Positions 5,827 to 35,761 of a stretch of 64,000 nt of DNA are shown here, in pieces. Location: positions 67,204-131,203 of the forward strand of contig CAYGTV010000002.1 in the NCBI GenBank assembly GCA_964353135.1, read 5' to 3'. The stretch comes from an uncultured Candidatus Saccharibacteria bacterium (GTDB lineage Bacteria > Patescibacteriota > Minisyncoccia > Phycocordibacterales > UBA918). The first letter of the stretch is position 1, and every line of letters starts with the position of its first letter. A program made the translations under genes and the position numbers. Under the pieces are notes generated by a model, which saw nothing but the letters and a program-made list of their open reading frames with translations, was not told the DNA's origin and made no database searches.

Positions 5827-6441
5827 TCACAGTTTAAGCCACACGTAGAGTACTACCAAAACGGCAAATACCACACTGGTGACTCCAAGAGACCGCCGGG
5901 CATAGGTCAGCGCTCGCGGTCCAAACCAATAGGTGCACAGCCCTACAACCGAGTATCTAAATCCACGACCTACCAATGAACCTATTAAAAACCAAACAAT
6001 ACTTCCCTGGGTTATACCAACAACCCACGCGGTCATAGTGTACGGGATTGGTGTGACTGCCCCTACCAGTGTGACTAAAAGCGTATTTGAAGTGTCCATG
6101 GTAGCTGTTAGTATCACAAACTGTTCTTGGATACCCGCTGTCATCATCGATTCCAAGAATCCAAAAAAGTATCGAGCGAGAAACAGGGCTACCACACCAC
6201 CGAGTATCGAAGTTAGCAGTGTGACGACAACAATTAATCCTGCCCGGCTACGGTTTGCCAAAATAGCAGCCACCATAAATGGATCGGTAATAATTGGGAT
6301 CGGCAGAGCTGACTCTACAAAAGAAATAAGTCCTACCACTAGCAACCCCGAACGGGACTCCATCAATGTTTGTGCTCGCGTTACTGTCCTCGTGTTGAGG
6401 ACTTTCTCTACGTGAGTATCAAGTGTTGTCGGCTCAATCAT
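5827..6441 (-). CDS. DedA/VTT-domain family membrane protein
   Basis: FVESALPIPIITDPFMVAAIL motif region and multiple TM helices. Confidence 0.5.
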   Translation of the reverse strand: MIEPTTLDTHVEKVLNTRTVTRAQTLMESRSGLLVVGLISFVESALPIPIITDPFMVAAILANRSRAGLIVVVTLLTSILGGVVALFLARYFFGFLESMMTAGIQEQFVILTATMDTSNTLLVTLVGAVTPIPYTMTAWVVGITQGSIVWFLIGSLVGRGFRYSVVGLCTYWFGPRALTYARRSLGVTSVVFAVLVVLYVWLKL

Positions 6442-6442
6442 A

Positions 6443-7207
6443 CTAATACAATCGAGTCCCAGCAGGCAGTTGGTTGGATGGATTCAAAAGTGCAAACACC
6501 CCACCCTCTTCCCCCGCTAAAATCATCCCTTGGCTTTCGAGTCCTTTTATCTTCCTTGGTGCGAGGTTTGCGATAAATGGACACTGCGTTCCAACCAGTG
6601 TTTGTTCATCTTCGAAAAACTCCCGAATCCCAGAAACAATTTGACGAGGTTGCTCCTCACCAAGGTCCACAGTTAGTTTGAGTAACTTATCTGCGTTTTC
6701 AACCACCTCTACCGCCATGATGGTGCCCAATTTAATTTCAACCGCTGCAAATTGCTCAAACGAAATTTCATTTGATTCAGCCTGTTCTTCGCCTGGTATA
6801 GTTTGTGGTTCCAGCATATTTTTTTGTTTAGTTAAGTAAGATTCTAGAATTAGTGCGGCAGCGGCAGCGTCAGTTTGACCATTGCGCCCAGTGATGGTTG
6901 CTGCTTGCTGGGTCGTCATCTGTTCGGGCTCTAGATGAATTGGCATCGGGAGCTGCAATGTTAGATCGGTGATAAATGACTCAATATTAGTTTGGACAGC
7001 ATTTGGCGCACCATCTAGATTAAGGGATTGTCCAATCACAACTTCTGTCACAGATTTCTCTTCAATCAAAGCAATAATTGTTTTCAATAATGACTGATCG
7101 TTTGGAATCACACCATGAGGAAAAGCCATCACGCCTGACTCATCAGTTAGTGCCAATCCTACTTTTTTAGTTCCATAGTCTATTCCCATGAGTCGCATAG
7201 TTTTCAC
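6443..7207 (-). CDS. ruvX: RuvX/YqgF (RuvC-like pre-16S rRNA nuclease / putative Holliday junction resolvase) fused to a C-terminal CsaA/Myf-type tRNA-binding domain
   Basis: N-terminus MGIDYGTKKVGLALTDE (YqgF signature); C-terminus VEIKLGTIMAVEVVENADKLLKLTVDLGEE...LAPRKIKGLESQGMILA matches the tRNA-binding (EMAP/CsaA) fold. Confidence 0.65.
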   Translation of the reverse strand: MKTMRLMGIDYGTKKVGLALTDESGVMAFPHGVIPNDQSLLKTIIALIEEKSVTEVVIGQSLNLDGAPNAVQTNIESFITDLTLQLPMPIHLEPEQMTTQQAATITGRNGQTDAAAAALILESYLTKQKNMLEPQTIPGEEQAESNEISFEQFAAVEIKLGTIMAVEVVENADKLLKLTVDLGEEQPRQIVSGIREFFEDEQTLVGTQCPFIANLAPRKIKGLESQGMILAGEEGGVFALLNPSNQLPAGTRLY

Positions 7208-7223: not shown

Positions 7224-7264
7224 AAAAACCCGGCGAATTCATATATGAATTCGCCGGGTTTTTG
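7224..7264. terminator. Bidirectional terminator AAAACCCGGCGAATTCATA/TATGAATTCGCCGGGTTTT
   Basis: 19-bp perfect palindrome with A-run upstream and T-run downstream. Confidence 0.6.
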
Positions 7265-7269
7265 TTTGT

Positions 7270-7340
7270 GCTCTCACCAGGAGTCGAACCTGGAGCTCCG
7301 GTACCGCAAACCAACGTTTTATCCATTAAACTATGAGAGC
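7270..7340 (-). tRNA. tRNA, anticodon loop UUGCGGU, so GCG (Arg) tentatively; the anticodon stem has two G-U pairs
   Basis: Reverse complement folds as a cloverleaf: acceptor GCTCTCA/TGAGAGC, D-arm GTTT-AATGGATA-AAAC, T-arm CCAGG-TTCGACT-CCTGG. Confidence 0.7.
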
Positions 7341-7376: not shown

Positions 7377-7847
7377 CTAAAACCCAAATAATTCCAGCAC
7401 CTTAACTAAAAACGGTTCCATTAGTTCTTCCTCTACCAGCCTCTCTTTAAGGATATCTTCAATCTCATCAATATGATCTGGTGGTAGCGGCATGACAATC
7501 AGTGGCATCAGACGTTGTTCAGACTTGACCAGCAACTGTGGACCACGAGGATCTTCTTCATCTATAAAATACGAGTCAAGGGTTGAGAATGGGTAGTGTC
7601 GATCTTCAATTTTTATTCCTCTGACTGTGATTGCATAGGGAATAATAGCTGGACGCTTGGCTGCTGACACTGCCAGTGCTCCACCTGACAGTCCGATCAA
7701 CAGTGCAAACAGCACACTGTCAAACATAACTGCTGCCACTACAAGCGCGAGAATAATAATCCCCAAAGCAAAAAACCAGTCATTCCCTTTTTCGACATGA
7801 TGATGCTGTGGCGCCTCCCAAGTTATCGATCGTAGTGCTGGTTCCAT
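7377..7847 (-). CDS. Hypothetical membrane protein
   Basis: ORF with two predicted TM helices near the N-terminus; no motif recognised. Confidence 0.4.
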   Translation of the reverse strand: MEPALRSITWEAPQHHHVEKGNDWFFALGIIILALVVAAVMFDSVLFALLIGLSGGALAVSAAKRPAIIPYAITVRGIKIEDRHYPFSTLDSYFIDEEDPRGPQLLVKSEQRLMPLIVMPLPPDHIDEIEDILKERLVEEELMEPFLVKVLELFGF

Positions 7848-9762: not shown

Positions 9763-10335
9763 ATGATTCGCCAGTTACGAGGAGAAATAACTCATATTGA
9801 AGAGAATGCACTCATTGTGGATGTAAATGGAGTTGGATACCTGGTCTACACTCCAACCAACACAACTGCCCATACACTGTATGCAGAAACATTGATGCAT
9901 ACGTATCTAGCGGTACGTGAGACGGCGCTTGATCTATACGGATTCTCATCGGTCGTCGAGCGCCGTTTGTTTGAGCTACTACTGAGTGTTCCAAAGATTG
10001 GACCAAAATCGGCCCTTGATGTGATGTGTAAAGCCAGCCCTACCCTCTTGATTGAACAGATCGCCACTGGTGAACCAGTTCAGCTGCAAAAGCTGTCAGG
10101 TATTGGCAAGAAAACGTGCGAAAACATCGTCAATCATCTACACGAAAAACTGGGTGATCTGGCTGAACACATCACCCCAACCGGACCACTAGACAGCAAG
10201 CAGGCAGACGCAATTGATGCGCTGGTTGCACTGGGCTACGATGTGGCATCAGCTCGCGAAACTGTAGCGTCACTCAACACCGACGACAATTCCGTCAACG
10301 ACATTATCACCAAAGCCTTACAAAAATTACCGTAA
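9763..10335 (+). CDS. ruvA: Holliday junction branch migration complex subunit RuvA
   Basis: MIRQLRGEITHIEENALIVDVNGVGYLV N-terminal OB domain; HhH region; about 190 aa. Confidence 0.85.
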   Translation: MIRQLRGEITHIEENALIVDVNGVGYLVYTPTNTTAHTLYAETLMHTYLAVRETALDLYGFSSVVERRLFELLLSVPKIGPKSALDVMCKASPTLLIEQIATGEPVQLQKLSGIGKKTCENIVNHLHEKLGDLAEHITPTGPLDSKQADAIDALVALGYDVASARETVASLNTDDNSVNDIITKALQKLP

Positions 10336-10339
10336 TACT

Positions 10340-11626
10340 ATGAGCGACTTCAGACAAACTGTTAAAAAAATTATCCCGAAAAAAGTATTTACTTTTTTCC
10401 AACCAGCTTACCACTATGCTCTGGCTTATATTGGTGCTGTGAAATACCGACACCCATCACGCGATATTGTTGTAATCGGAGTTACCGGTACAAAAGGAAA
10501 ATCAACTACCACCGAAATACTCGCGCAAATATTGCGCGGCGCTGGATACAAAACCGCTTCACTTTCAACTATTCAGTTTACTTACGGTGAAGAAGTTGAA
10601 CGGAATCTATTTAAGATGACCATGCCAGGACGGTATTTTACCCAGCAGTTTTTGCGCCGGGCGGTTGATGCCGGCTGTACGCACGCCGTAATGGAAATGA
10701 CATCAGAAGGTGCCAAACAATACCGACATAAATTTATCGATGTTGATGCTCTACTGTTTACCAACCTTACCCCAGAGCACATCGAATCACACGGCTCGTT
10801 TGCAAACTACAAAGCAGCCAAATTGCGACTAGCTCAAAATGTAGCCGATAGTCCAAAACGACCACGTACCTTAGTGGCAAACGTCGATGATGAGCACGGT
10901 CAAGATTTTCTTAATTTTGAAGTTGAGCACATCCTCCCCTACCGACTCAACAATCTGACCTTACACTCACTGCAAAAAGATTCAGTGACAATGGTGATCG
11001 GAGGAGTGACTATCCGCGTGCCAATCGTTGGAGTATTTAACGTGTACAACACCCTAGCGGCAATTACCTATGCAAGATCGATTGGGATTTCACTTGAATC
11101 AATCCGTGAAAGCCTGGCAAAATTACCACCAGTGGCTGGACGAGTCGAACAATTTCATTCACCCTCAGGTGCCACAAAGAAAATCACCGCAGTTGTCGAC
11201 TACGCCCACACACCCGATTCACTGACCCAGCTATACCAAGCGTTTGCAAATAAATACAAAATTGGAATCCTGGGGAACACCGGTGGTGGGCGTGACACTT
11301 GGAAACGACCTGAGATGGGGGCGATTGCCGAGCAGTATTGCGACCATGTCATTCTCACCAACGAGGACCCATATGATGAAAACCCTCAATCTATAGTCGA
11401 CCAGATGCGCGACGGAATGAGTGAGGGAGCACCGGTTGAGATCATAATGGATCGCCGGTCAGCTATTAAACACGCCATCAACATCTGCCCAGAAGGTGGC
11501 TATGTGTTGATCAGTGGAAAAGGTACCGATCCATACATCATGGGCCCAAACGGCACCAAACAAGAGTGGAGTGACGCGCAAGTGGTGCGAGAGCTACTTG
11601 GTGAACTTGCTCTAGCTACCGACTAA
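10340..11626 (+). CDS. Mur ligase family protein (MurE/MurF-like catalytic and C-terminal domains, no N-terminal domain)
   Basis: P-loop VIGVTGTKGKSTTTEIL; Mur ligase middle-domain and C-domain motifs; 428 aa. Confidence 0.6.
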   Translation: MSDFRQTVKKIIPKKVFTFFQPAYHYALAYIGAVKYRHPSRDIVVIGVTGTKGKSTTTEILAQILRGAGYKTASLSTIQFTYGEEVERNLFKMTMPGRYFTQQFLRRAVDAGCTHAVMEMTSEGAKQYRHKFIDVDALLFTNLTPEHIESHGSFANYKAAKLRLAQNVADSPKRPRTLVANVDDEHGQDFLNFEVEHILPYRLNNLTLHSLQKDSVTMVIGGVTIRVPIVGVFNVYNTLAAITYARSIGISLESIRESLAKLPPVAGRVEQFHSPSGATKKITAVVDYAHTPDSLTQLYQAFANKYKIGILGNTGGGRDTWKRPEMGAIAEQYCDHVILTNEDPYDENPQSIVDQMRDGMSEGAPVEIIMDRRSAIKHAINICPEGGYVLISGKGTDPYIMGPNGTKQEWSDAQVVRELLGELALATD

Positions 11627-12605
11627 ACAAATTGTAGAACCGATCCTGCAAATTGATCATCCAGGCGTCATTTAAAAATGACGTTGATATATGGATGTAT
11701 GTCATAACCACAAATAGCTGCAGATTGAGTAGAAGATACGCCAAGTCCGGGGTATCTGGCTGAAAAAAATAGTACGCGGCCAGTACAAACGGAGCAGTCG
11801 CTAACACGTTGTGAAAAATAAAAGTCCAATACACCTTTACTCCCCGTTTCTTCATTTCAACCAGATAAAATAGCAACCAGGTCATAAAGTGGTACCCAAC
11901 CACAAACACGTACATATAAATATAAGCCGGTGGTCCATACACAGACACCAAAGTAGTAGTACCGACAATCACCAACAGTAAAAAGATTGTTAATTTTGTG
12001 AACCTATACTTTAGCCACGCTATGAATAGTGTCAGTAGACTCAATCCAAACCCAACCCAAAAAATCTGACTAAAGGCTGCAAGTCCGAGGTAATACTCTT
12101 CAAATATAAATGTCACTGCCATAGTACTGACGTTAGCAAACTGAAGATTCTGATCAAAGAAAAAGGTTTTATCGGGCACTGAGTAGGTTAGTAGCGCAAT
12201 CACAAAAATAGCCAGTGCACACAAATGTAACAAAGGGACTATGTAACCCGTTTGTCGTTCAATCAACGTTTGTTCGTTAAGTAAGCCGTGGAGTAAAAAA
12301 TATAAAAACCCGATAAACAACGCCGCCACAAACCCGACAAAATAAAACAGGGTGAAAGAGAGTCCAATCGAAAATAGTGTTAAAAATATAAATGATCCGA
12401 CATACTGCCAGGGGTTTGGTTTTCTAAAAAAACCTTTGATCTGGTAGTAAAAACCAACTAAAAAATGCCCGTAGCCAAACACAATAATTGCCACCAGAAT
12501 CGCTTGCCATTGCTGGACACTGTTTCCAAAAATCGCATATGTCTGGGCAATACAGATAATTACCCCCAGAAAACTATATAGCTTATTTGCAATGTAGGTG
12601 GTCAT
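11616..12605 (-). CDS. Hypothetical polytopic membrane protein
   Basis: About 9 predicted TM helices; no motif recognised. Confidence 0.4.
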   Translation of the reverse strand: MTTYIANKLYSFLGVIICIAQTYAIFGNSVQQWQAILVAIIVFGYGHFLVGFYYQIKGFFRKPNPWQYVGSFIFLTLFSIGLSFTLFYFVGFVAALFIGFLYFLLHGLLNEQTLIERQTGYIVPLLHLCALAIFVIALLTYSVPDKTFFFDQNLQFANVSTMAVTFIFEEYYLGLAAFSQIFWVGFGLSLLTLFIAWLKYRFTKLTIFLLLVIVGTTTLVSVYGPPAYIYMYVFVVGYHFMTWLLFYLVEMKKRGVKVYWTFIFHNVLATAPFVLAAYYFFQPDTPDLAYLLLNLQLFVVMTYIHISTSFLNDAWMINLQDRFYNLFSR

Positions 12606-12606
12606 A

Positions 12607-14103
12607 TTATCTGGGTATTTCGGTTATCCGTAGTTGCCAGCCATCACCATCAGTCACAATGTCTGGGACAGACACCTCGCCTGTTGGTGTAAACACTTGC
12701 GATGATACCCCATTTCCAGCACTTACGATGTACTGCTGATTCCAGATCGCTTGCACCCGTAACATGCTGGTCAGCTGACTCCAAAGTGAGTACGGCTCAT
12801 TAAACCAAGCATGAGAAACTGGGTGAGCAATAAATGGCACACTCCCCCGCTCACTCAAAACAGTTCGCACCCCCCACGGCGATACACTTTCAAAACAAAA
12901 CAGCATTCCTGGTGAACTATCGGCATGACCACTTTGATCAATGTTTGAGCCAACTGCAAACGCCACCGTTTTTGCAAACTGGTCGACCACTTCATCACGA
13001 CCAAATAACTTCAGTACCTTCATATATAAGGTTGGCATAAATTCACCCTGCGGAACCAAATAGCGTTTGTGTGACTGGTCAATAATACTCTCTTGTCCAT
13101 TGTAGACAAACGATTGTATAACCGCTTTCTCATCATCATCCGCTCGACCACTATCGACAATGACTGTTTCTGCTCCACCAGAACGAAACGCAAACTGGGC
13201 AGCAACTAGGCTCGGTTTACTTTGCTGATCAAAATAGCGCGAGTCCTCGGGTAAAACAATATAATTAGGTTCCATACCAAGCGCGGTTTGCACCGCAAAC
13301 TCTAACTGCGCTTGCGCCTGTTCTCTTCCAGTACTCGTTCGCAATTGATCCAACTTAAAATCAGTATCGACCACTGCCACTGTGTAGGGATCTTTTGTAG
13401 GGCTACTATCAGGTAGTGAAATAAAGCTAGTAATAAATACCAGAACTAGCAGCGCGACTATGTATCCCTTATTTAGTTTCAACGATAGTACGTACAGGAC
13501 CATCACGCTAATTGCCACCATGAGCACACCAAGTGAATATACCCCTGCAATCTGGGCCGCCTGAATTAACAACGGGTGGGCAGCTAGTAGGTACCCCACA
13601 TAACCAAAACTAAAAGCAGTAGTAACCGATCCACCGGGACCAATTGTGATGATTGAAAAAATAAGCGAGCCGAACATTTCACTGGCAATCCACAGAAACG
13701 GAATTGAAAGATATGTAACTACAAGCGACGTGTGTTTTTGTAGTAACCTACAACCAATAGCGAACACTATCCCCGCACTTCCCAGCCACAAAGCAGCCGT
13801 GCTCCACCAGAAAAAAATTAAAATCAGTTGTATATATCCTAAATCAATTCCTATCCATTCAATTGGATACACACTCCAAAACCAAACAAGTGACAGGGCT
13901 GACTTGGTTGTCCAAGCGAGCAAACTACCAAGGACTACGTGTTTAAGTTCAGACTGTCGTAATGCTAGATAAATCGTAGACCCGATACCAGCGATCCCTA
14001 AAAACCAAACCACCGGAATGACAAAACCAATTCCAAGCAACAGCCCGGTGACTGTCCACTGCAGCAACCAACTATTTTTGAAGTAGGTCATGATATATAA
14101 CAA
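12607..14103 (-). CDS. lnt: Apolipoprotein N-acyltransferase-like (Lnt family): polytopic N-terminus plus a carbon-nitrogen hydrolase domain
   Basis: TM-rich N-terminus; IVLPEDSRYF (E), HKRYLVPQGEFMP (K, Lnt KxxLVPFGEY-like), LFCFESV (C) matching the CN-hydrolase E-K-C triad. Confidence 0.6.
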   Translation of the reverse strand: MLYIMTYFKNSWLLQWTVTGLLLGIGFVIPVVWFLGIAGIGSTIYLALRQSELKHVVLGSLLAWTTKSALSLVWFWSVYPIEWIGIDLGYIQLILIFFWWSTAALWLGSAGIVFAIGCRLLQKHTSLVVTYLSIPFLWIASEMFGSLIFSIITIGPGGSVTTAFSFGYVGYLLAAHPLLIQAAQIAGVYSLGVLMVAISVMVLYVLSLKLNKGYIVALLVLVFITSFISLPDSSPTKDPYTVAVVDTDFKLDQLRTSTGREQAQAQLEFAVQTALGMEPNYIVLPEDSRYFDQQSKPSLVAAQFAFRSGGAETVIVDSGRADDDEKAVIQSFVYNGQESIIDQSHKRYLVPQGEFMPTLYMKVLKLFGRDEVVDQFAKTVAFAVGSNIDQSGHADSSPGMLFCFESVSPWGVRTVLSERGSVPFIAHPVSHAWFNEPYSLWSQLTSMLRVQAIWNQQYIVSAGNGVSSQVFTPTGEVSVPDIVTDGDGWQLRITEIPR

Positions 14104-15650: not shown

Positions 15651-16355
15651 TTACTTTCCTCCTAACACCCACTGCTCTAGTGCCAAATCAATATCACGAA
15701 TCCCTGCGTGTCCGGCGTGATACAGCTCGATGAGCGACTGGGAAAGATGTGTGACTTCTCCCGGAGCGAATTTAGAAAGTGAGCGTTTTGCTTTGTTATA
15801 GGGAAAATCTTTCATCCCGGCTTCAGCCGCATTCCTAGTTACTTCCGCCAGGCGCAAGGCTTTTAATTGCCACCATAAAATCCCAATCAGTTCTTCAGGC
15901 GCCGAGCCAGCTGCTTTGGCTTCTTGGAGTAGCACCCAGAGTTGCCGACGATCCTTGCTCGCTAGAGCATCAGCCATCGCAAAGGTATTAAAATGTTCAC
16001 TTTTTTTAGCTGTGAATTCTTCTACCGTTGTCGCGTATTTTCCGTACGACTTTTTAGCTGGGGCCAACAGTGCTCTTTCAAGAATCAAAAACGTATTACC
16101 AGACTCGCTCATTTCCTTGAGGTTATTTTTTACCTCTTCAGCGAAATCAGCATTGTCAGCTGGCGTATCGATCACAAACCACTCTTCCCCGCCAAACAGT
16201 GATGAAGCACCTAGTGCATCTGCAATCTGTCCAACAGCATAGCTATTAGCATCGAGTGTGGTGAGCGTTCCTTCTTGTGACAGATTTGTGTCGGCAAAAG
16301 CAGTCGCGGCATCACGCACTTTCTGTCGATCGGTTCCATAGTAAATATGCAGCAT
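15651..16355 (-). CDS. holA: DNA polymerase III delta subunit-like (HolA)
   Basis: MLHIYYGTDRQKV N-terminus and C-terminal FAMADALASKDRRQLWVLLQEA...ELIGILWWQLKAL resembling HolA domain III. Confidence 0.5.
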   Translation of the reverse strand: MLHIYYGTDRQKVRDAATAFADTNLSQEGTLTTLDANSYAVGQIADALGASSLFGGEEWFVIDTPADNADFAEEVKNNLKEMSESGNTFLILERALLAPAKKSYGKYATTVEEFTAKKSEHFNTFAMADALASKDRRQLWVLLQEAKAAGSAPEELIGILWWQLKALRLAEVTRNAAEAGMKDFPYNKAKRSLSKFAPGEVTHLSQSLIELYHAGHAGIRDIDLALEQWVLGGK

Positions 16356-23822: not shown

Positions 23823-24812
23823 ATGACTGACAAACCGAAAACCATCACGCGCGATGATGCACAAAACCTCGATCGCACTCTACGACCACAAACTTGGGAG
23901 GAGTATATTGGTCAAGCTAAAATCAAAGAGAACCTGCGAATCTTGCTGACTGCTGCCAAAGAACGTGGCCATGCAGCTGAACATATTTTGCTCTATGGGC
24001 CGCCAGGGCTTGGAAAAACCACATTGTCTAACTTGGTAGCCAAGACTCTTGGTACAAATATGAAAACCACCTCCGGCCCGGCGATTGAAAAGGTTGGTGA
24101 CCTGGCAGCAATCCTAACCAACCTTACTCCTGGTGATGTGTTGTTTATCGACGAGATCCATAGACTGAGTAAAAGCATCGAGGAGGTCCTCTACCCCGCC
24201 ATGGAGTCAGGGGTGCTTGATATCATCATCGGCAAAGGGCCCTCGGCTCGCACCGTACAGCTCGAACTACCTCCATTTACCATGGTGGCTGCCACCACTC
24301 GCATCTCACTCTTATCAAGTCCTCTGCGGTCACGGTTTTCTGGTGGAACGTTTCGGCTCGAGTTCTATAGTGACGATGAAATTGGACAGATCCTCGGTCG
24401 GTCAGCCGAACTACTTGGAATGGACCCCACCCCTGAAGTCATCAGTCAGATCGCTCGTCGATGTCGAGCTACTCCCCGTACAGCTAACTATTTGCTCAAA
24501 CGTTGCCGCGACCTCGCTCAACTAGAAGGAACTGATTTAACTGCTGAAATTATCGACGAGACATTTAGGTTGCTCGAAATTGACACCTTGGGATTAGGCG
24601 CCCCTGACCGAGCCGTGCTTGATGTGATTATTAATAAGTTCAACGGTGGTCCAGTTGGACTAAACACCATTGCAGCCGCCACCGGCGAAGAACCGTCAAC
24701 CATCGAAGATGTCATAGAACCCTACTTGATACGTCACGGCTTGATTGAACGAACTCCCCGGGGTCGAACTGCCAGTCCTGAAGCCTATAGTCATTTAGAG
24801 AACTTACGTTAG
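23823..24812 (+). CDS. ruvB: Holliday junction branch migration DNA helicase RuvB
   Basis: AAA+ motifs LLYGPPGLGKTTL and DEIHRL. Confidence 0.9.
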   Translation: MTDKPKTITRDDAQNLDRTLRPQTWEEYIGQAKIKENLRILLTAAKERGHAAEHILLYGPPGLGKTTLSNLVAKTLGTNMKTTSGPAIEKVGDLAAILTNLTPGDVLFIDEIHRLSKSIEEVLYPAMESGVLDIIIGKGPSARTVQLELPPFTMVAATTRISLLSSPLRSRFSGGTFRLEFYSDDEIGQILGRSAELLGMDPTPEVISQIARRCRATPRTANYLLKRCRDLAQLEGTDLTAEIIDETFRLLEIDTLGLGAPDRAVLDVIINKFNGGPVGLNTIAAATGEEPSTIEDVIEPYLIRHGLIERTPRGRTASPEAYSHLENLR

Positions 24813-24817
24813 GTTTT

Positions 24818-25471
24818 ATGGAAAAATTTACTCCCCAAGAAAGCATAATACATAATCAGAAAAAGATTGAAGACCAAGAACATATGAGCAGTGGTCAAAA
24901 ACTTATTAGGTATGTACTAGCTAACATCAAACCCACTGAACATATACAAAGGTATGGAAATAAAAGCAACGAGCAAAGTAAACGAGAAACACTCAATCAA
25001 TCTGTCGCTGAACACGTAGCTTCTATGACAGAAATCCTTGAATTTCTTGTATCTCAAGAAAGCGAGGGAACCTTTGCCGAGCTCGATACTGAAAAAATGC
25101 GAAAAATGATTAGGTTCCACGATAGACATGAAATTCTTATTGATGATTTGGTATACAAAAGTGACCAATACCGGGCAGAGGAAGCTATTGCTGAGCATAC
25201 CAACGCTGATTTTTTGAAAAAGGTTGGTTTTTCTGATGCGCCAGCTATAATGGAAGAATATCAACTGGGAGAATCTGATGAGGTTAAAATAGTGAAAGCA
25301 ATAGATCGATTAGAAGCGTATACAACAAAGATGCATGGGGACCCGAGATCAATTATAGAAAACCGAGTAAGCGATGCTATTGAAATAGCGGAAAATATCA
25401 AACACATTTCCCCAACCCTATACCACGCCAGTATTTTAGCGATTCGCTGGCTACAAAAACAGAACGAGTAA
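24818..25471 (+). CDS. HD-domain phosphohydrolase (YfbR-like 5'-deoxynucleotidase family), tentative
   Basis: AEHVASM (His), RFHDRHEILIDDL (HD...D) motif spacing. Confidence 0.4.
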   Translation: MEKFTPQESIIHNQKKIEDQEHMSSGQKLIRYVLANIKPTEHIQRYGNKSNEQSKRETLNQSVAEHVASMTEILEFLVSQESEGTFAELDTEKMRKMIRFHDRHEILIDDLVYKSDQYRAEEAIAEHTNADFLKKVGFSDAPAIMEEYQLGESDEVKIVKAIDRLEAYTTKMHGDPRSIIENRVSDAIEIAENIKHISPTLYHASILAIRWLQKQNE

Positions 25472-25482
25472 CTAATTAAAAT

Positions 25483-26022
25483 ATGTCAGGACACAATAAA
25501 TGGTCAAAAATTAAACATAAAAAAGGTGCAACCGACGCTCAGCGCAGCAAGCTATTCTCGAGGCATTCATCTCTCATTACGATGGAGGTTAAAAAAGCTG
25601 GTGGTAGCGCTGACTCGGCCAATGTTATAGCTGCGGTTGATCGAGCGAAAAAGGATTCCATGCCCAAAGACGCAATCGAGCGAGCGCTAGCAAAAGGTTC
25701 GGGTACTGGAGCAGCCAATATGGAGGAGGTTCTCTACGAAGGGTACGGCCCAGGGGGTGTTCCCCTTCTCATTGAGGCAGTGACCGACAACAACAACCGT
25801 ACGGCTCCAGAAATTAAACACATCTTTAGCAAGGCTGGAATAGAACTTGGTGTACCAGGCTCGGCTGCGTGGGCATTTACCAAAGGTGCAGAGGGGTACA
25901 CTCCTAACAACCCAATGGAACTAGACGATGCAACAGGAGAAAAATTGGCTGACTTTGTAGAGAAACTAGAAGAGCAAGACGACGTCACTAACGTCTACAC
26001 GGGCGCTGACACCCCTGAATAA
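25483..26022 (+). CDS. yebC: YebC/PmpR-family transcriptional regulator (shortened form)
   Basis: MSGHNKWSKIKHKKGATDAQRSKLFS N-terminus; in the conserved yebC-ruvC context. Confidence 0.8.
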   Translation: MSGHNKWSKIKHKKGATDAQRSKLFSRHSSLITMEVKKAGGSADSANVIAAVDRAKKDSMPKDAIERALAKGSGTGAANMEEVLYEGYGPGGVPLLIEAVTDNNNRTAPEIKHIFSKAGIELGVPGSAAWAFTKGAEGYTPNNPMELDDATGEKLADFVEKLEEQDDVTNVYTGADTPE

Positions 26023-26024
26023 TT

Positions 26025-26486
26025 ATGTCCCTTTGGAACATTCGTTGGTTTAAATTACGAGGTCTCACTTTTGCAAATCTGCAAAAAATATGCGGGTTTA
26101 TTTTACAGATCCCAGTACCCCCAAAATTTTCGGTTGGGTGTTTTATCGAACAAGATGGAAAGTATCTTGTGATAGACCTAACATATCGTACTGGGGTCGC
26201 TTTTCCTGGAGGAATGATTGTCCCTGGAGAAAATGTAGAATCGGCACTAAAACGTGAGGTATTCGAAGAAACTGGATTAACCGTTACTGACTATACCTAC
26301 ATAGAATCATGCGAGGATATACAATACGGCCTATCGGTTATCGCCCTGGCGTTTTCTGTTACAGCGACGGGGACATTGAGTGACTCAACCGAGGGCACTC
26401 CTATTTGGATGAGTCCTGAAGAGATTCAAGAAAAGATAACGTATAACAACTGGAAAAAAATGTTCACTAACTATCTACAGCGGTAA
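26025..26486 (+). CDS. NUDIX hydrolase
   Basis: Nudix box GGMIVPGENVESALKREVFEETGL. Confidence 0.7.
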   Translation: MSLWNIRWFKLRGLTFANLQKICGFILQIPVPPKFSVGCFIEQDGKYLVIDLTYRTGVAFPGGMIVPGENVESALKREVFEETGLTVTDYTYIESCEDIQYGLSVIALAFSVTATGTLSDSTEGTPIWMSPEEIQEKITYNNWKKMFTNYLQR

Positions 26487-26487
26487 C

Positions 26488-26967
26488 ATGAGAGTCCTTG
26501 GGGTTGATCCTGGATATGACCGTGTTGGTCTGGCTGTCATGGAATACGAAAACGGTATCGAGAAGTTACTCTTTTCAATGTGCTTAGAAACTAACAAAGC
26601 AGACCATATACACCTACGCCTCCAACAAGTTGGAGATACGATTACTAAACTAGTTACAGAACACCAGGTTGATACCCTTGGTATCGAAACACTCTTTTTC
26701 AACAAAAACGTTAAGACCGCCATGAGTGTAGCCGAAGCTCGCGGAATCATTATTTATACTGCCCTCCAAGCTGGATGTCAGATTTATGAGTTCAGCCCGC
26801 AGACAATTAAAATCGCCACTACGGGCTATGGCAACAGTGACAAGGTCGCAATGATGACAATGGTAAAACAATTAGTACCCGACGTTCCACCAAACGCCCT
26901 TGACGACGAGTACGATGCAATTGCTGTTGGTATTACCTGCCTTGCACATCACGGAAGAAGCGTATAG
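26488..26967 (+). CDS. ruvC: Crossover junction endodeoxyribonuclease RuvC
   Basis: MRVLGVDPGYDRVGLAVME catalytic N-terminus; 159 aa. Confidence 0.85.
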   Translation: MRVLGVDPGYDRVGLAVMEYENGIEKLLFSMCLETNKADHIHLRLQQVGDTITKLVTEHQVDTLGIETLFFNKNVKTAMSVAEARGIIIYTALQAGCQIYEFSPQTIKIATTGYGNSDKVAMMTMVKQLVPDVPPNALDDEYDAIAVGITCLAHHGRSV

Positions 26968-31322: not shown

Positions 31323-32417
31323 TTATTTGTTCATCGGCATGACGAGATATCGCTGATTGGTGTCATTTACCCCATGCAAGATCATCGGCCTACCAATCCC
31401 AGCAAAACTTAGTTTGAGTGAGTCCCCTGAAATATGTGACAACGGATCCATAATAAACTGCTGATTAAAATTAAGAGAAAGCTCCTCCCCTTCTACAGTC
31501 GCCTTAATTGTGTCAGTTGTGTGTCCGACCTCATTATTTTGGGAAGACACCGTCAGGTTATTGTCGCTAATAACCAGTGTCACCTGCCTAAATTTATTCA
31601 AGAAAATATTGGTCTTTTTAAATGACTGCTGTAGGTCACTCTTGAGAAGAGTGACGTAGGTGACGTACTCTTTAGGGATAATTTGCTCATAATCTGGAAA
31701 TGAACCTGTCACCAACCTGGTAGAAACATACACCCCACCAGGAAACCGTAAAGCACACTGATTGTCATCCATACCAAAAAGCGGATCCTCACCAACAGCA
31801 TCACATATCCGAGCCAGCTCCAGAGCATTTTTCTGTGGCACCATAAATGACTCTGTAAGAGTAAGTCCTTTTTGAGAAACAGTCTTCTCCATCAATCGAA
31901 ACGAATCAGTTGCAACAAATGTTAATGAGTGTTCTTTCTTTTGTTGGATAAACACACTACCTAGTTCAGGTTTGATAGACGTCTGAGAAGCCGCAAACGC
32001 CACGCTCTTGATCCCAAACGCAAATTGGGCACCCTGCAGGGTGTTACCCAAATCTGTGAGCTGCTGAACCACGGGGAACTCTTCCGGGGAGAATAGTTTA
32101 ATTGAAGTGTTAGAGGTTTTGCTTTCAATTTGTAGAACCTGTTCTTCCATCCGGAGAGTGATTTTCTCCTGAGAGATAAACTGAATACTTTGTAGAAAGA
32201 TTTGTGTTGGTACAGCCACCACACCAGTTTCAACAACTTCTCCTGATAGAGGAATTTCAAGATTAATCTCTAGGTTAGTTGCTTGGAGTGTAATCTGACT
32301 TTCTCGCGCCTCAATCCGAACACACTGCAGCACAGGCAAAGTGACATGTTTGGTGCTAATGCGCCCAACTAGCTCTAGAGCTTTTTGTAGTTCACTGTGG
32401 AGAAGGGTTATTTCCAT
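31323..32417 (-). CDS. dnaN: DNA polymerase III beta sliding clamp
   Basis: About 365 aa with a three-domain clamp pattern; immediately downstream of dnaA. Confidence 0.85.
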   Translation of the reverse strand: MEITLLHSELQKALELVGRISTKHVTLPVLQCVRIEARESQITLQATNLEINLEIPLSGEVVETGVVAVPTQIFLQSIQFISQEKITLRMEEQVLQIESKTSNTSIKLFSPEEFPVVQQLTDLGNTLQGAQFAFGIKSVAFAASQTSIKPELGSVFIQQKKEHSLTFVATDSFRLMEKTVSQKGLTLTESFMVPQKNALELARICDAVGEDPLFGMDDNQCALRFPGGVYVSTRLVTGSFPDYEQIIPKEYVTYVTLLKSDLQQSFKKTNIFLNKFRQVTLVISDNNLTVSSQNNEVGHTTDTIKATVEGEELSLNFNQQFIMDPLSHISGDSLKLSFAGIGRPMILHGVNDTNQRYLVMPMNK

Positions 32418-32736
32418 ATTTTTATATTAACTTATTTTACTCTTTATTATTAGTGCTGTGGAGATGTGCAAAAGTCTCATCCGGTGTTGTAATAAAGGCT
32501 GTAATCATGTGGGTAAATTGCGTAGAGCTGTGGGTGGTCCGACAAATGACGGGGAGTACCTGTGTATTACTTTTTGGAAAAATTATAACCTGTTGGTAAG
32601 TCGGGTTATTTGTAGGGGTATTCCCCAGTAATCCCCGATTGTTCTAGGTAGTAATCCTCAGGTTACTCATGGCTGTATACAGGGTTACTCACATTGACTT
32701 GTTTAAAATAATCGCCCTAACGTTAGGGCGATTATT
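32418..32736. promoter_or_regulatory. dnaA-dnaN intergenic region with degenerate DnaA-box-like TGTGG(A/G) motifs and the dnaA terminator hairpin (32706-32738)
   Basis: TGTGGAGAT, TGTGGGTAA, TGTGGGTGG read from the sequence; hairpin ATCGCCCTAACGTTAGGGCGAT. Confidence 0.35.
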
Positions 32737-34122
32737 TTATTTCAAGAGTAGCCGCACCTGAGTAATTTCTTCTTCCAGCTCGGTGTCCCCTTTTAATTCA
32801 TTTTTTATCTTCTCACAGGAATGGATGACAGTTGTATGGTCTCGGCCTCCCAATTTCTTGCCAATGGCTGGGTATGAAATTTGGAAGTCTTCACGCAAAA
32901 TATACATAATGATCTGGCGTGGTTTTACAACTTCTTTACGTCGAGTCTTTTCGTAGATGCTGGCGTGGTCAATATCGTAGTAGCGAGCTACTTTCTCCAC
33001 TACGTCTGTGATGGCGAGAGTTTTGCGTGGTCGCGAGCTGTTTTTAATGATGGTTCGGACCTCTTCGATAGAAAGCACCCTCCCTAGCAGCTGTGACTGG
33101 CACATGATGCTGTTGAGAGCACCCTCTAGCTCTCGCACGTTCCCCTCAATCGTAGCTGCCAGGTGGTCGACTACGTCATCTGCTAGGGTGATGCTGTTTT
33201 GGGCAGCTTTTGCTCGCAAAATAGCCGCTCGTGATTCGATATCTGGGGCTGGTAGGTCAACAATCATTCCTTGGGCAAACCGTGATTGTAGTCGCTCTTC
33301 CATCCCGTTTAAGAGGGCTGGGTGAATGTCACTTGAGAACACAATTTGTTTGTTGTTGTCGTGTAGAGCATTAAACAAGTGAAAGAGTTCCTCCTGAGTT
33401 TTTTCTTTGGTGGCTAGGAACTGCACGTCGTCCATAATTAAAACGTCGTACTGGCGGTAGCGGTCTTTGAAATTATTAGCGCTTCCACTTTGGAGTGAGT
33501 TAAAGTAATCAACCGCAAACCGCTCTGAGGTTACGTAAAATACTTTCTTGCCAGTTTTTTTGATATGGTTTCCTACCGCTTGGATCAAGTGAGTCTTACC
33601 ATGACCAGTTTTTCCGTAGATAAATAATGGGTTGTAGGTAATTCCGGGTTTTTCACTGACAGTTTTGGCAGCTGCGTGTGCTAAAGCATTATAGGGCCCA
33701 ACCACAAACGTATCAAATGAGTATTTTGGGTTGAGGTTATCACTCTTGTTGATGTAGTACTCCTCTAGCGGTAGGGCAGCGTTAACTGTTTGGTTTTTGT
33801 TTGATTCCTGCTTTCGTTCATTTCGCTGCGCTACGATATATTCCACACTTCGTACGTGAGGCGTGATTTCACGTAGGGTTTTGAGGATCATCGTTTGGAA
33901 TTTGTCCTGCAGCCAGTCTTTAACAAATACACTTGGTACACCAATAGTAGCCAGGCCGTCTTCGAGGGTGACGATATGCGTGTCTCGGAACCAGGTTTTA
34001 AAGTTGGCGGTTGTGATTGCCAATTCAATTTTTACCAATGCATCATCCCACAACTGTTTTACATCAACCTGTTCAGTTTTGACGATGCTATTTGTTTGGT
34101 GTGAAGAGGTGATTGGATTCAT
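32737..34122 (-). CDS. dnaA: Chromosomal replication initiator DnaA
   Basis: AAA+ GKTGHGKTHLIQAVGN; C-terminal DnaA-box-binding HTH domain. Confidence 0.9.
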   Translation of the reverse strand: MNPITSSHQTNSIVKTEQVDVKQLWDDALVKIELAITTANFKTWFRDTHIVTLEDGLATIGVPSVFVKDWLQDKFQTMILKTLREITPHVRSVEYIVAQRNERKQESNKNQTVNAALPLEEYYINKSDNLNPKYSFDTFVVGPYNALAHAAAKTVSEKPGITYNPLFIYGKTGHGKTHLIQAVGNHIKKTGKKVFYVTSERFAVDYFNSLQSGSANNFKDRYRQYDVLIMDDVQFLATKEKTQEELFHLFNALHDNNKQIVFSSDIHPALLNGMEERLQSRFAQGMIVDLPAPDIESRAAILRAKAAQNSITLADDVVDHLAATIEGNVRELEGALNSIMCQSQLLGRVLSIEEVRTIIKNSSRPRKTLAITDVVEKVARYYDIDHASIYEKTRRKEVVKPRQIIMYILREDFQISYPAIGKKLGGRDHTTVIHSCEKIKNELKGDTELEEEITQVRLLLK

Positions 34123-35032: not shown

Positions 35033-35761
35033 ATGTTTAATTATATTTGGCACACGTTCTTCTTTGACCCAGTGTACAACTCATTAGTTTTTTTTATTGA
35101 TGTTATTCCTGGGGGGGATGTTGGTCTAGCGATTATTGCAACCGTATTTCTAGTAAAAACCATCCTCTTCCCGATCTCAATAAAAGCTGCTCAGACTCAG
35201 CGGATCATGAAAGAAATTGAGCCGCAATTAAAAGAGCTCAAAGAAACCCACAAAGACGACCGTGAAGCTCAAGCCAAAGCCATGATGGAGATCTACCGCG
35301 ATGCGGGGATGAATCCGTTTGCTAGTATCATCCTGATTTTTATCCAAATTCCAGTGGTGATTGCGTTGTATTTTTCTGTCTATAAGGGTGGCGGTATTCC
35401 TCTGCCAGCGATCAACACAGACATTTTATATAGCTTTGTAGCCGAGCCGATCACTATTTCGATGAATTTTCTAGGGATGATCGATATCACACAGCGGAGT
35501 GTGTTACTCGCCATTGCTGCCGCTGTGACACAGTTTTTTGTAGTCAGTGTCACGATGCCAAAACTCCCTCCAAAAGTAGAGGGAGCCGAGCCAAGCATGA
35601 AAGACGATTTTATGCGCAACATGCAGGTACAAATGAAGTACGTCATGCCGATTTTAATCGGAGTAGTGGCCTACACTATTTCAGCTGCAATTGCTCTCTA
35701 CTTCCTTGTGAGCAACATCGTTGCCCTAATTCAAGAAGTGTTTGTTAGGAAGCATCGGTAG
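35033..35761 (+). CDS. yidC: Membrane protein insertase YidC (short, Gram-positive type)
   Basis: 5-TM core; conserved position after rnpA. Confidence 0.8.
   Translation: MFNYIWHTFFFDPVYNSLVFFIDVIPGGDVGLAIIATVFLVKTILFPISIKAAQTQRIMKEIEPQLKELKETHKDDREAQAKAMMEIYRDAGMNPFASIILIFIQIPVVIALYFSVYKGGGIPLPAINTDILYSFVAEPITISMNFLGMIDITQRSVLLAIAAAVTQFFVVSVTMPKLPPKVEGAEPSMKDDFMRNMQVQMKYVMPILIGVVAYTISAAIALYFLVSNIVALIQEVFVRKHR

Follow-up and report, generated by a model that had tools for sequence, protein, structure and literature searches.

A RuvX/YqgF nuclease domain joined to a Trbp111/MetRS-C-type tRNA-binding domain in a Patescibacteriota genome

The window analyzed here is a stretch of 64,000 nucleotides from an uncultured Candidatus Saccharibacteria bacterium (assembly GCA_964353135.1, contig CAYGTV010000002.1, positions 67,204 to 131,203). 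On its minus strand, a single reading frame encodes an RNase H-fold nuclease domain of the RuvX/YqgF family followed by an OB-fold tRNA-binding domain. The earlier note on this DNA, made from the sequence alone, had proposed a fusion of RuvX with a CsaA/EMAP-type tRNA-binding domain. Both domains do reside in one open reading frame (ORF), but the subtype had to be corrected, the second domain being of the kind found in Trbp111 and at the C-terminus of methionyl-tRNA synthetase (MetRS-C). It is the domain combination that is unusual; taken singly, both halves fall within known families as ordinary members. No mention of a RuvX-tRNA_bind architecture was found in the searchable literature, nor any paper on RuvX in Patescibacteria. 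The gene comprises the following features, with residues numbered from ATG 7198.

6443..7198, minus strand: whole fusion gene, from ATG 7198 (MRLMGIDYG...) through 251 codons to the stop codon TAG at 6443-6445
6812..7198, minus strand: RuvX/YqgF RNase H-fold nuclease domain, residues 1-129, assigned by Pfam, NCBIfam, structure alignments and AlphaFold2 (AF2)/Foldseek
6767..6811, minus strand: flexible linker, about residues 130-144, ...KQKN-M-LEPQTIPGEEQAESNE
6446..6766, minus strand: Trbp111/MetRS-C-type tRNA_bind OB domain, residues 145-251, including the N- and C-terminal dimer flanks

The mechanically called ORF occupies 6443..7207 of the minus strand and gives 254 residues from GTG 7207. 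ATG 7198 is the likely start because the N-termini of homologues read MR[LY]LGIDYG (consensus MRYLGIDYG); an identical protein in the database was annotated with ATG 7189 as its start. The frame is unbroken across both halves, with zero stops and zero frame changes in the window sequence. The identical protein is present on an independent Logan contig, and two fused genes were re-translated correctly from their own DNA, in independent assemblies and in the same syntenic slot. These observations confirm the fusion as a real single gene for a two-domain protein. The alternative, an artefact in which read-through or a frameshift from sequencing or assembly makes two genes appear as one, draws on the fact that most of the sampled related GTDB loci have the two as separate genes. 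It is contradicted by the continuous frame and by at least 120 fused clusters from JGI, ENA, NCBI and Logan, and retains a vanishingly small probability; the overlooked frameshift that the earlier note had worried about is ruled out for the window.

The N-terminal half matched PF03652 over profile positions 1-133 of 134 (E 7e-25, 88.3 bits against a cut-off of 29.2) and passed TIGR00250 RNAse_H_YqgF (49.1 bits against 43.25). Its sequence matches in the PDB (E 1e-6 to 4e-5) were 1nu0, 7ess, 1vhx and 7w89. These belong to the structures of Escherichia coli YqgF (EcYqgF, 1nu0/1ovq), Mycobacterium tuberculosis RuvX (7ess), Bacillus subtilis YrrK (1vhx) and Deinococcus radiodurans YqgF (DrYqgF, 7w89), which share with the fusion an RNase H-like fold of about 125 residues. 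The AF2 model of this half, at a predicted local distance difference test (pLDDT) score of about 95, has strands at residues 2-8, 12-18, 25-32, 50-57 and 87-91 and helices at 37-48, 67-82 and 109-129; Foldseek aligned it to 7w89 and 7ess with TM-scores (TMt) of 0.83 and 0.71, respectively.

The predicted nuclease keeps a complete catalytic triad. Asp-7 (7178-7180), Glu-92 (6923-6925) and Asp-110 (6869-6871) align in HMMER with Asp-22, Glu-106 and Asp-122 of DrYqgF and represent the GxDxG Asp, the beta5 Glu and the C-terminal-helix Asp (D-x-A-A-A) common to RuvX/YqgF proteins. In alignments of 61 to 120 homologues, Glu-92 and Asp-110 are invariant and Asp-7 is at least 90% conserved. The D22A mutation impairs the RNase activity of DrYqgF, and E106A and D122A block it (PMC9601230). 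Unlike characterized RuvX proteins, none of which has a C-terminal OB domain either, the fusion has Glu-90, Pro-91, Glu-92 and Gln-93 in place of the DER motif: the pattern D-E-R-[LF]-[ST]-[ST] reads P-E-Q-M-T-T, with only the Glu and the Thr-Thr retained. The label "canonical YqgF/RuvX" thus holds for the identity of the domain, as judged by profiles, fold and triad, and fails at this motif. The variation is clade-wide, since RuvX of Paceibacteria (loci L001-L046 and the window) has [EQ]-x-E, often E-P-E, in place of DER; this leaves the catalytic Glu in position, removes the Asp and brings in a Glu or Gln two residues upstream. DER is retained in L068 and in the non-Patescibacteria locus L053. 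The residues with demonstrated catalytic function in DrYqgF do not include the Asp and Arg of the motif (PMC9601230).

The C-terminal half matched PF01588 over the entire profile (positions 1-96 of 96; E 5e-26, 91 bits against 27). Both Pfam families are therefore matched far above their gathering scores, and the possibility that the C-terminal region might not match tRNA_bind at all is put aside. The half also passed TIGR00399 metG_C_term, if marginally (117.8 bits against 116.65). Its best sequence matches in the PDB were MetRS-C and Trbp111 (E about 3e-20): Aquifex aeolicus Trbp111 (deposited as 'MetRS beta subunit'; 1pyb, 8vtz) is 39% identical in a full-length match that takes in the dimer flanks, and the MetRS-C domains of bacteria (1mkh, 5h34, 6wq6) are about 50% identical. 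The OB fold is intact in the AF2 model (pLDDT about 95), with TMt of 0.88-0.93 to Trbp111/MetRS-C structures (0.88 to 8vtz, 0.93 to 1mkh, 0.90 to 2cwp; 5h34 was also matched) at root-mean-square deviations of 1.2-3.9 Å. Unlike Trbp111 and MetRS-C, the domain is here neither stand-alone nor attached to an aminoacyl-tRNA synthetase, and sits on a nuclease.

A 2024 co-crystal structure of Trbp111 with tRNA showed that the OB domain grips only the single-stranded 3'-terminal C75-A76, through Lys-33, Arg-75, Ile-77, Phe-78, Ser-82 and Met-85, overturning the elbow-binding model; Trbp111 rejects internal CA, 3' extensions and a 3' phosphate, and accepts DNA tails equally well (PMC11286949). To call the domain a "structure-specific RNA-binding module", as the earlier note did, is hence outdated, for what the Trbp111 OB reads is this 3' end and not the tRNA shape. 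Alignment to 8vtz and 6wq6 equates Lys-171, Arg-215 (6554-6556), Ile-217, Ser-222 and Met-225 of the fusion with Lys-33, Arg-75, Ile-77, Ser-82 and Met-85, and these residues of the predicted 3'-CA pocket are invariant or nearly so in homologue alignments. The position of Phe-78, which stacks on C75 in Trbp111, is Lys-218 here and Lys or Arg in the family, Arg being found also in the MetRS-C of 6wq6; F78A was the mildest of the Trbp111 pocket mutants (PMC11286949). The dimer flanks are present and conserved as well (Ile-145, Phe-150, Pro-240 and Gly-247), the match spanning residues 7-112 of the 113-residue Trbp111, whose dimer is extremely stable with an estimated dissociation constant of about 3e-17 M.

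Arc1p/AIMP1 (EMAP II) and CsaA belong to the same Trbp/EMAP II-like OB subclass as the domain of the fusion, and CsaA had been named with Trbp111 and MetRS-C as its match; only the latter two stood up. EMAP II-type proteins are monomers with an extra C-terminal pseudo-dimer domain, whereas the fusion ends at the Trbp111 C-terminus and lacks this domain; in Foldseek, no more than about 100 of the 165-175 residues of EMAP II/Arc1p structures could be aligned (TMt 0.52-0.57). If the domain were instead a CsaA-like export chaperone placed on RuvX, its ligand would be a peptide and not RNA. The fold is indeed common to CsaA (TMt 0.84-0.90) and weak sequence matches exist. The CsaA models, however, are far below their cut-offs (TIGR02222, 37.2 bits against 119.65; NF007496, 47.3 against 171), as are the YgjH-type models of NCBIfam, whereas metG_C_term passes and the residues contacting the tRNA 3'-CA are conserved. 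We regard a chaperone domain as highly improbable.

The linker between the two domains is disordered in the AF2 model (pLDDT below 50 at residues 131-141). Across 107 fused homologues it measures 9-51 residues (median 22), consists of 19% Glu, 13% Ala and 11% Pro, and is unconserved in sequence. The whole-protein model, computed with 61 homologues, contains two confident domains (mean pLDDT 90.2, predicted TM-score 0.53). Because the catalytic, CA-pocket and flank residues are conserved, selection appears to maintain the ordinary activity of each half.

A homologue search of 5.8 billion proteins, clustered at 90% identity, was used to examine how widespread the fusion is. All of the 120 best matches carry both domains, at 42-100% identity, so that the fused state extends from the window's lineage to at least as many protein clusters. 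An exhaustive search of 1.84 billion representatives returned about 18 full-length fused clusters at 50% identity, together with many close stand-alone RuvX proteins (about 125-135 residues) and stand-alone OB proteins (about 110-150 residues). The few named fused proteins come from Paceibacteria or Parcubacteria metagenome-assembled genomes (MAGs). Hundreds of fused sequences are already in public databases under inconsistent automatic names such as 'YqgF', 'tRNA-binding protein' and 'methionine--tRNA ligase subunit beta'. The statement that this is not the standard architecture is accurate for model bacteria and does not apply to Parcubacteria/Paceibacteria, where the fusion is common.

Related loci were collected by a scan of GTDB species genomes and analyzed through stop-to-stop ORFs and domain hidden Markov models; the counts describe a sample, not a census. 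The Patescibacteria loci scanned are titled, in their records, Parcubacteria, Paceibacterota, Kaiser-, Nomura-, Taylor- and Lloydbacteria, Minisyncoccia and 'uncultured Saccharibacteria'. In at least 34 of them ruvX and a Trbp111-like gene of ~110 residues are separate, and among the matches listed the two are directly adjacent in 31 of the 34 split loci. In the adjacent pairs the ruvX stop is TAA, TAG or TGA, and the ATG of the next gene, OB, lies anywhere from 14 nucleotides (nt) upstream to 231 nt downstream of it, several junctions overlapping by 4, 8, 11 or 14 nt. Met-131 of the fusion (6806-6808) falls where the OB gene starts in relatives with split genes; this Met, within 'KQ[KR]NM', is kept in the window's clade and coincides with the OB-gene start-codon position of the split relative L001. 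In some split relatives, the OB gene is already extended by an acidic stretch at its N-terminus, or RuvX ends in an acidic tail. The adjacent or overlapping split genes, the Met at the old start and the pre-existing acidic extensions show the route to the fusion, namely loss of the stop codon between two packed neighbours, ruvX and a Trbp111-like gene.

Two loci in the scan are unusual in themselves. L003 (23-907) has ruvX and OB fused almost without a linker (...YLDKQKNNMKDKISYEDY...) and contains an in-frame TAG inside the OB domain, which could mark a pseudogene, a sequencing error or recoding. In the Nomurabacteria locus L027 (2472-3099), ruvX and the OB gene are separated by a toxin-antitoxin pair, HigB/RelE-like and XRE (HigA-like), placed precisely at their junction; in L043 and L045 the junction has other insertions.

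We favour, at a rough probability of 0.5, a reading in which the fusion protein forms a dimer and processes RNA as a nuclease, its OB domains holding on to CCA-type 3' ends. The OB domains would pair as a homodimer, like Trbp111 and MetRS-C, and the dimer would capture the CCA tails of mature tRNA or other 3'-CA ends. Two flexibly tethered RuvX RNase domains would thereby be kept near CCA-ended RNA, with the OB raising the local substrate concentration as it does for MetRS. The function would most likely be maturation or turnover of stable RNA, for example at the pre-16S 5' end or on tRNA-containing precursors; that the OB serves RuvX's 16S-processing role, as the earlier note had concluded from the fusion, is no more than plausible. 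DrYqgF is an RNA 5'-3' exo/endonuclease, and EcYqgF processes pre-16S rRNA. Trbp-type OB domains fused to aminoacyl-tRNA synthetases enhance tRNA loading by raising the local tRNA concentration. Cooperation between the two domains is further favoured by the age and wide distribution of the ruvX-OB pairing and by the persistence of the fused state through deep divergence.

Weighing this reading requires the neighbourhood of the gene, in which three features flank the fusion.

5827..6441, minus strand: DedA/VTT-family membrane protein gene, downstream of the fusion and followed by pilM, pilN and pilO
7224..7340, minus strand: tRNA-Arg(GCG) at 7268-7340 with a hairpin at 7224-7263, upstream of the fusion
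7377-7847, minus strand: predicted membrane protein of 156 residues without a Pfam hit, just upstream of tRNA-Arg and syntenic in at least 22 related loci

Both the window and the related loci conserve a block in the order Mur ligase, RuvA, S20, hypothetical membrane protein, ruvX, OB, DedA/VTT, pilM, pilN, pilO, RluD and L19. Relatives that have no OB gene have yielded fusions of RuvX to DedA/VTT at the same locus, in two proteins of 323 and 345 residues (P0157 and P0247); the former (locus L081, 1935-2906) was confirmed to lie in the same pilM...RluD-L19 synteny. Fusion of neighbouring genes at this locus is thus recurrent. A neutral origin must be considered, in which loss of a stop codon joined two neighbours that still work independently and the tethering is tolerated. 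RuvX would then remain an essential pre-rRNA/RNA nuclease, and the OB a general tRNA 3'-end chaperone or a trans-acting factor resembling the MetRS beta subunit. We consider this a serious possibility, somewhat short of an even chance.

Several observations speak for such independence and weigh against a cooperating nuclease, beginning with the RuvX-DedA/VTT fusions themselves. The whole block being syntenic, the adjacency of ruvX and OB is unspecific for coupling. Fused and split forms interleave in a neighbour-joining tree (235 columns, indicative only), and the split L006 is closer to the query (64% identity) than the fused P0049-P0120 are (42-49%). This gives no support to a single origin of the fusion and indicates at least two independent fusion or fission events. 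Each gene also occurs without the other, RuvX alone in at least six loci (L019, L021, L023, L033, L037 and L038) and, among the matches listed, OB alone at the same locus in L034; genes are inserted between the pair in 3 of the 34 listed split loci (L027, L043 and L045). No RuvX motif was found to co-vary with OB presence, [EQ]xE being the same in fused and split proteins, and the AF2 model has no fixed interface or orientation between the domains. The same MetRS-C-type OB is joined elsewhere to unrelated enzymes, a shikimate kinase (P0222, 283 residues) and a Ser_hydrolase/alpha-beta hydrolase (P0237, 298 residues). Finally, 16S rRNA is not known to have a CA end.

Other evidence is harder to reconcile with a neutral merger. 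The RuvX-OB fusions form large, deep clades, with roughly 18 clusters at 50% identity and members as distant as 42% identity, whereas both RuvX-VTT fusions found are single-member, single-contig clusters. Elsewhere this type of OB is typically attached to tRNA-acting enzymes, and both domains are strongly constrained while fused. Because the forms interleave, RuvX-DedA fusions occur and single genes are kept in some lineages, fusion alone is nevertheless no proof of functional coupling.

The window also encodes the components of the standard Holliday junction machinery.

9763-10335, plus strand: RuvA, next to the Mur ligase and 13 kb from the RuvB-RuvC cluster
23823-24812, plus strand: RuvB
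26488-26967, plus strand: RuvC (PF02075, E 4.6e-31)

RuvB and RuvC delimit a plus-strand cluster at 23823-26967 that contains RuvB, an HD-domain protein, YebC/TACO1, NUDIX and RuvC. These genes bear on the idea that the fusion acts on DNA, the OB serving mainly as an ultra-stable dimeriser that pairs two RuvX sites for symmetric cleavage and perhaps holds 3' DNA tails. MtYqgF and HpYqgF have resolvase activity, and the crystal structures of MtYqgF and BsYqgF are dimeric. The tight Trbp111 dimer has already been used as a fusion dimeriser (7d8r/7d8s), Trbp111 takes DNA as well as RNA tails, and ruvA is syntenic at a distance of 2.5 kb. However, RuvA, RuvB and RuvC are all complete in the window, so RuvX is not needed as a resolvase, and its substituting for a missing RuvC is ruled out. 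DrYqgF is inactive on DNA and on junctions, EcYqgF works in rRNA processing, and where a characterized YqgF comes from an organism with RuvC, it is an RNase. In addition, ruvA lies on the other strand with tRNA genes and other genes in between, and conservation covers the CA-pocket residues, not the dimer flanks alone. A role as Holliday junction resolvase is therefore unlikely, and we assign it only a small probability. A literature search on Holliday junctions and RuvC in the candidate phyla radiation found nothing relevant.

The cooperating-nuclease reading can be taken one step further, to the tentative and rather doubtful proposal that tRNA 3' ends guide the nuclease RuvX in Parcubacteria. 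Docked on mature CCA tails, the OB dimer would position RuvX on a nearby 5' leader or spacer, the docking targets being free tRNA, tRNA within rRNA-tRNA precursors or ribosome-associated tRNA. If this were true, the repeated selection of the ruvX-OB pairing and fusion would constitute Rosetta-stone evidence for stable RNA next to tRNA as the RuvX substrate and would supply a simple recruitment mechanism, and Holliday junctions would not be the cellular substrate of RuvX.

A distant precedent for a YqgF-like domain and an OB-fold RNA-binding domain in one polypeptide is provided by Tex/Spt6. In a superfamily analysis of RNase H-like proteins Tex clusters next to RuvX, and its YqgF-like domain lacks the third carboxylate. 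The OB of Tex is an S1 domain. Unlike the fusion, Tex is large and multidomain and its OB is not of the Trbp/EMAP II type, so the two are not homologous as architectures.

RuvX/YqgF is nearly universal and essential in bacteria, and its role is disputed between resolvase, pre-16S rRNA nuclease and transcription factor. The presence of a domain that reads 3'-CA beside RuvX or fused to it leads to the concrete hypothesis that CCA-ended RNA is a substrate or a landmark for RuvX, and the fusion is a compact natural protein with which to test it. The lead is tempered because neighbour-gene fusions at this locus can be incidental; we take the fusion as a hint, a useful but unproven pointer to RuvX acting on RNA. 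The locus likewise exemplifies the merging of neighbouring genes in compact candidate-phyla-radiation genomes, as RuvX-OB and RuvX-DedA, and its recurrent fusions caution against inferring function from fusion alone.

Downstream of the fusion, the ATG of the DedA gene (6439-6441) lies 1 nt past the fusion stop codon, and the two genes are probably translationally coupled for this reason. Upstream, tRNA-Arg(GCG) has no encoded CCA (3' end ...GAGAGCA/CAAAC) and precedes a hairpin with a perfect 20-bp stem between a run of A and a run of U (-35.8 kcal/mol, z -10.4). The hairpin, identified by direct folding and not flagged by a consensus promoter/terminator scan, resembles a terminator that would serve both directions. 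The fusion ATG comes only about 25 nt later, after an extended -10-like sequence, TGcTAAACT, which would imply a near-leaderless fusion mRNA. Rfam finds three tRNAs only in the window, and neither RNase P RNA nor another structured RNA.

No metG is present in the window or in the fetched Patescibacteria loci. A Woesearchaeota MAG (L047, 9974-11808) has a stand-alone OB gene of 114 residues beside an oppositely oriented gene for a 497-residue MetRS without a C-terminal OB, an arrangement like that of a split MetRS alpha/beta. Elsewhere in the window, four ORFs of 234-498 residues (90-1172, 11616-12605, 12607-14103 and 15651-16355) gave no Pfam match at E <= 1e-4. Downstream of pilMNO, the minus strand at 1279-2970 encodes a 563-residue protein with an AAA_21/AAA_15 ATPase and an OLD-like TOPRIM, an OLD-family nuclease that is likely a defence gene. 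At 31323-34122, also on the minus strand, dnaN adjoins dnaA, with YidC at 35033-35761; the dnaN/dnaA adjacency indicates that a chromosomal origin region probably lies near 34 kb.

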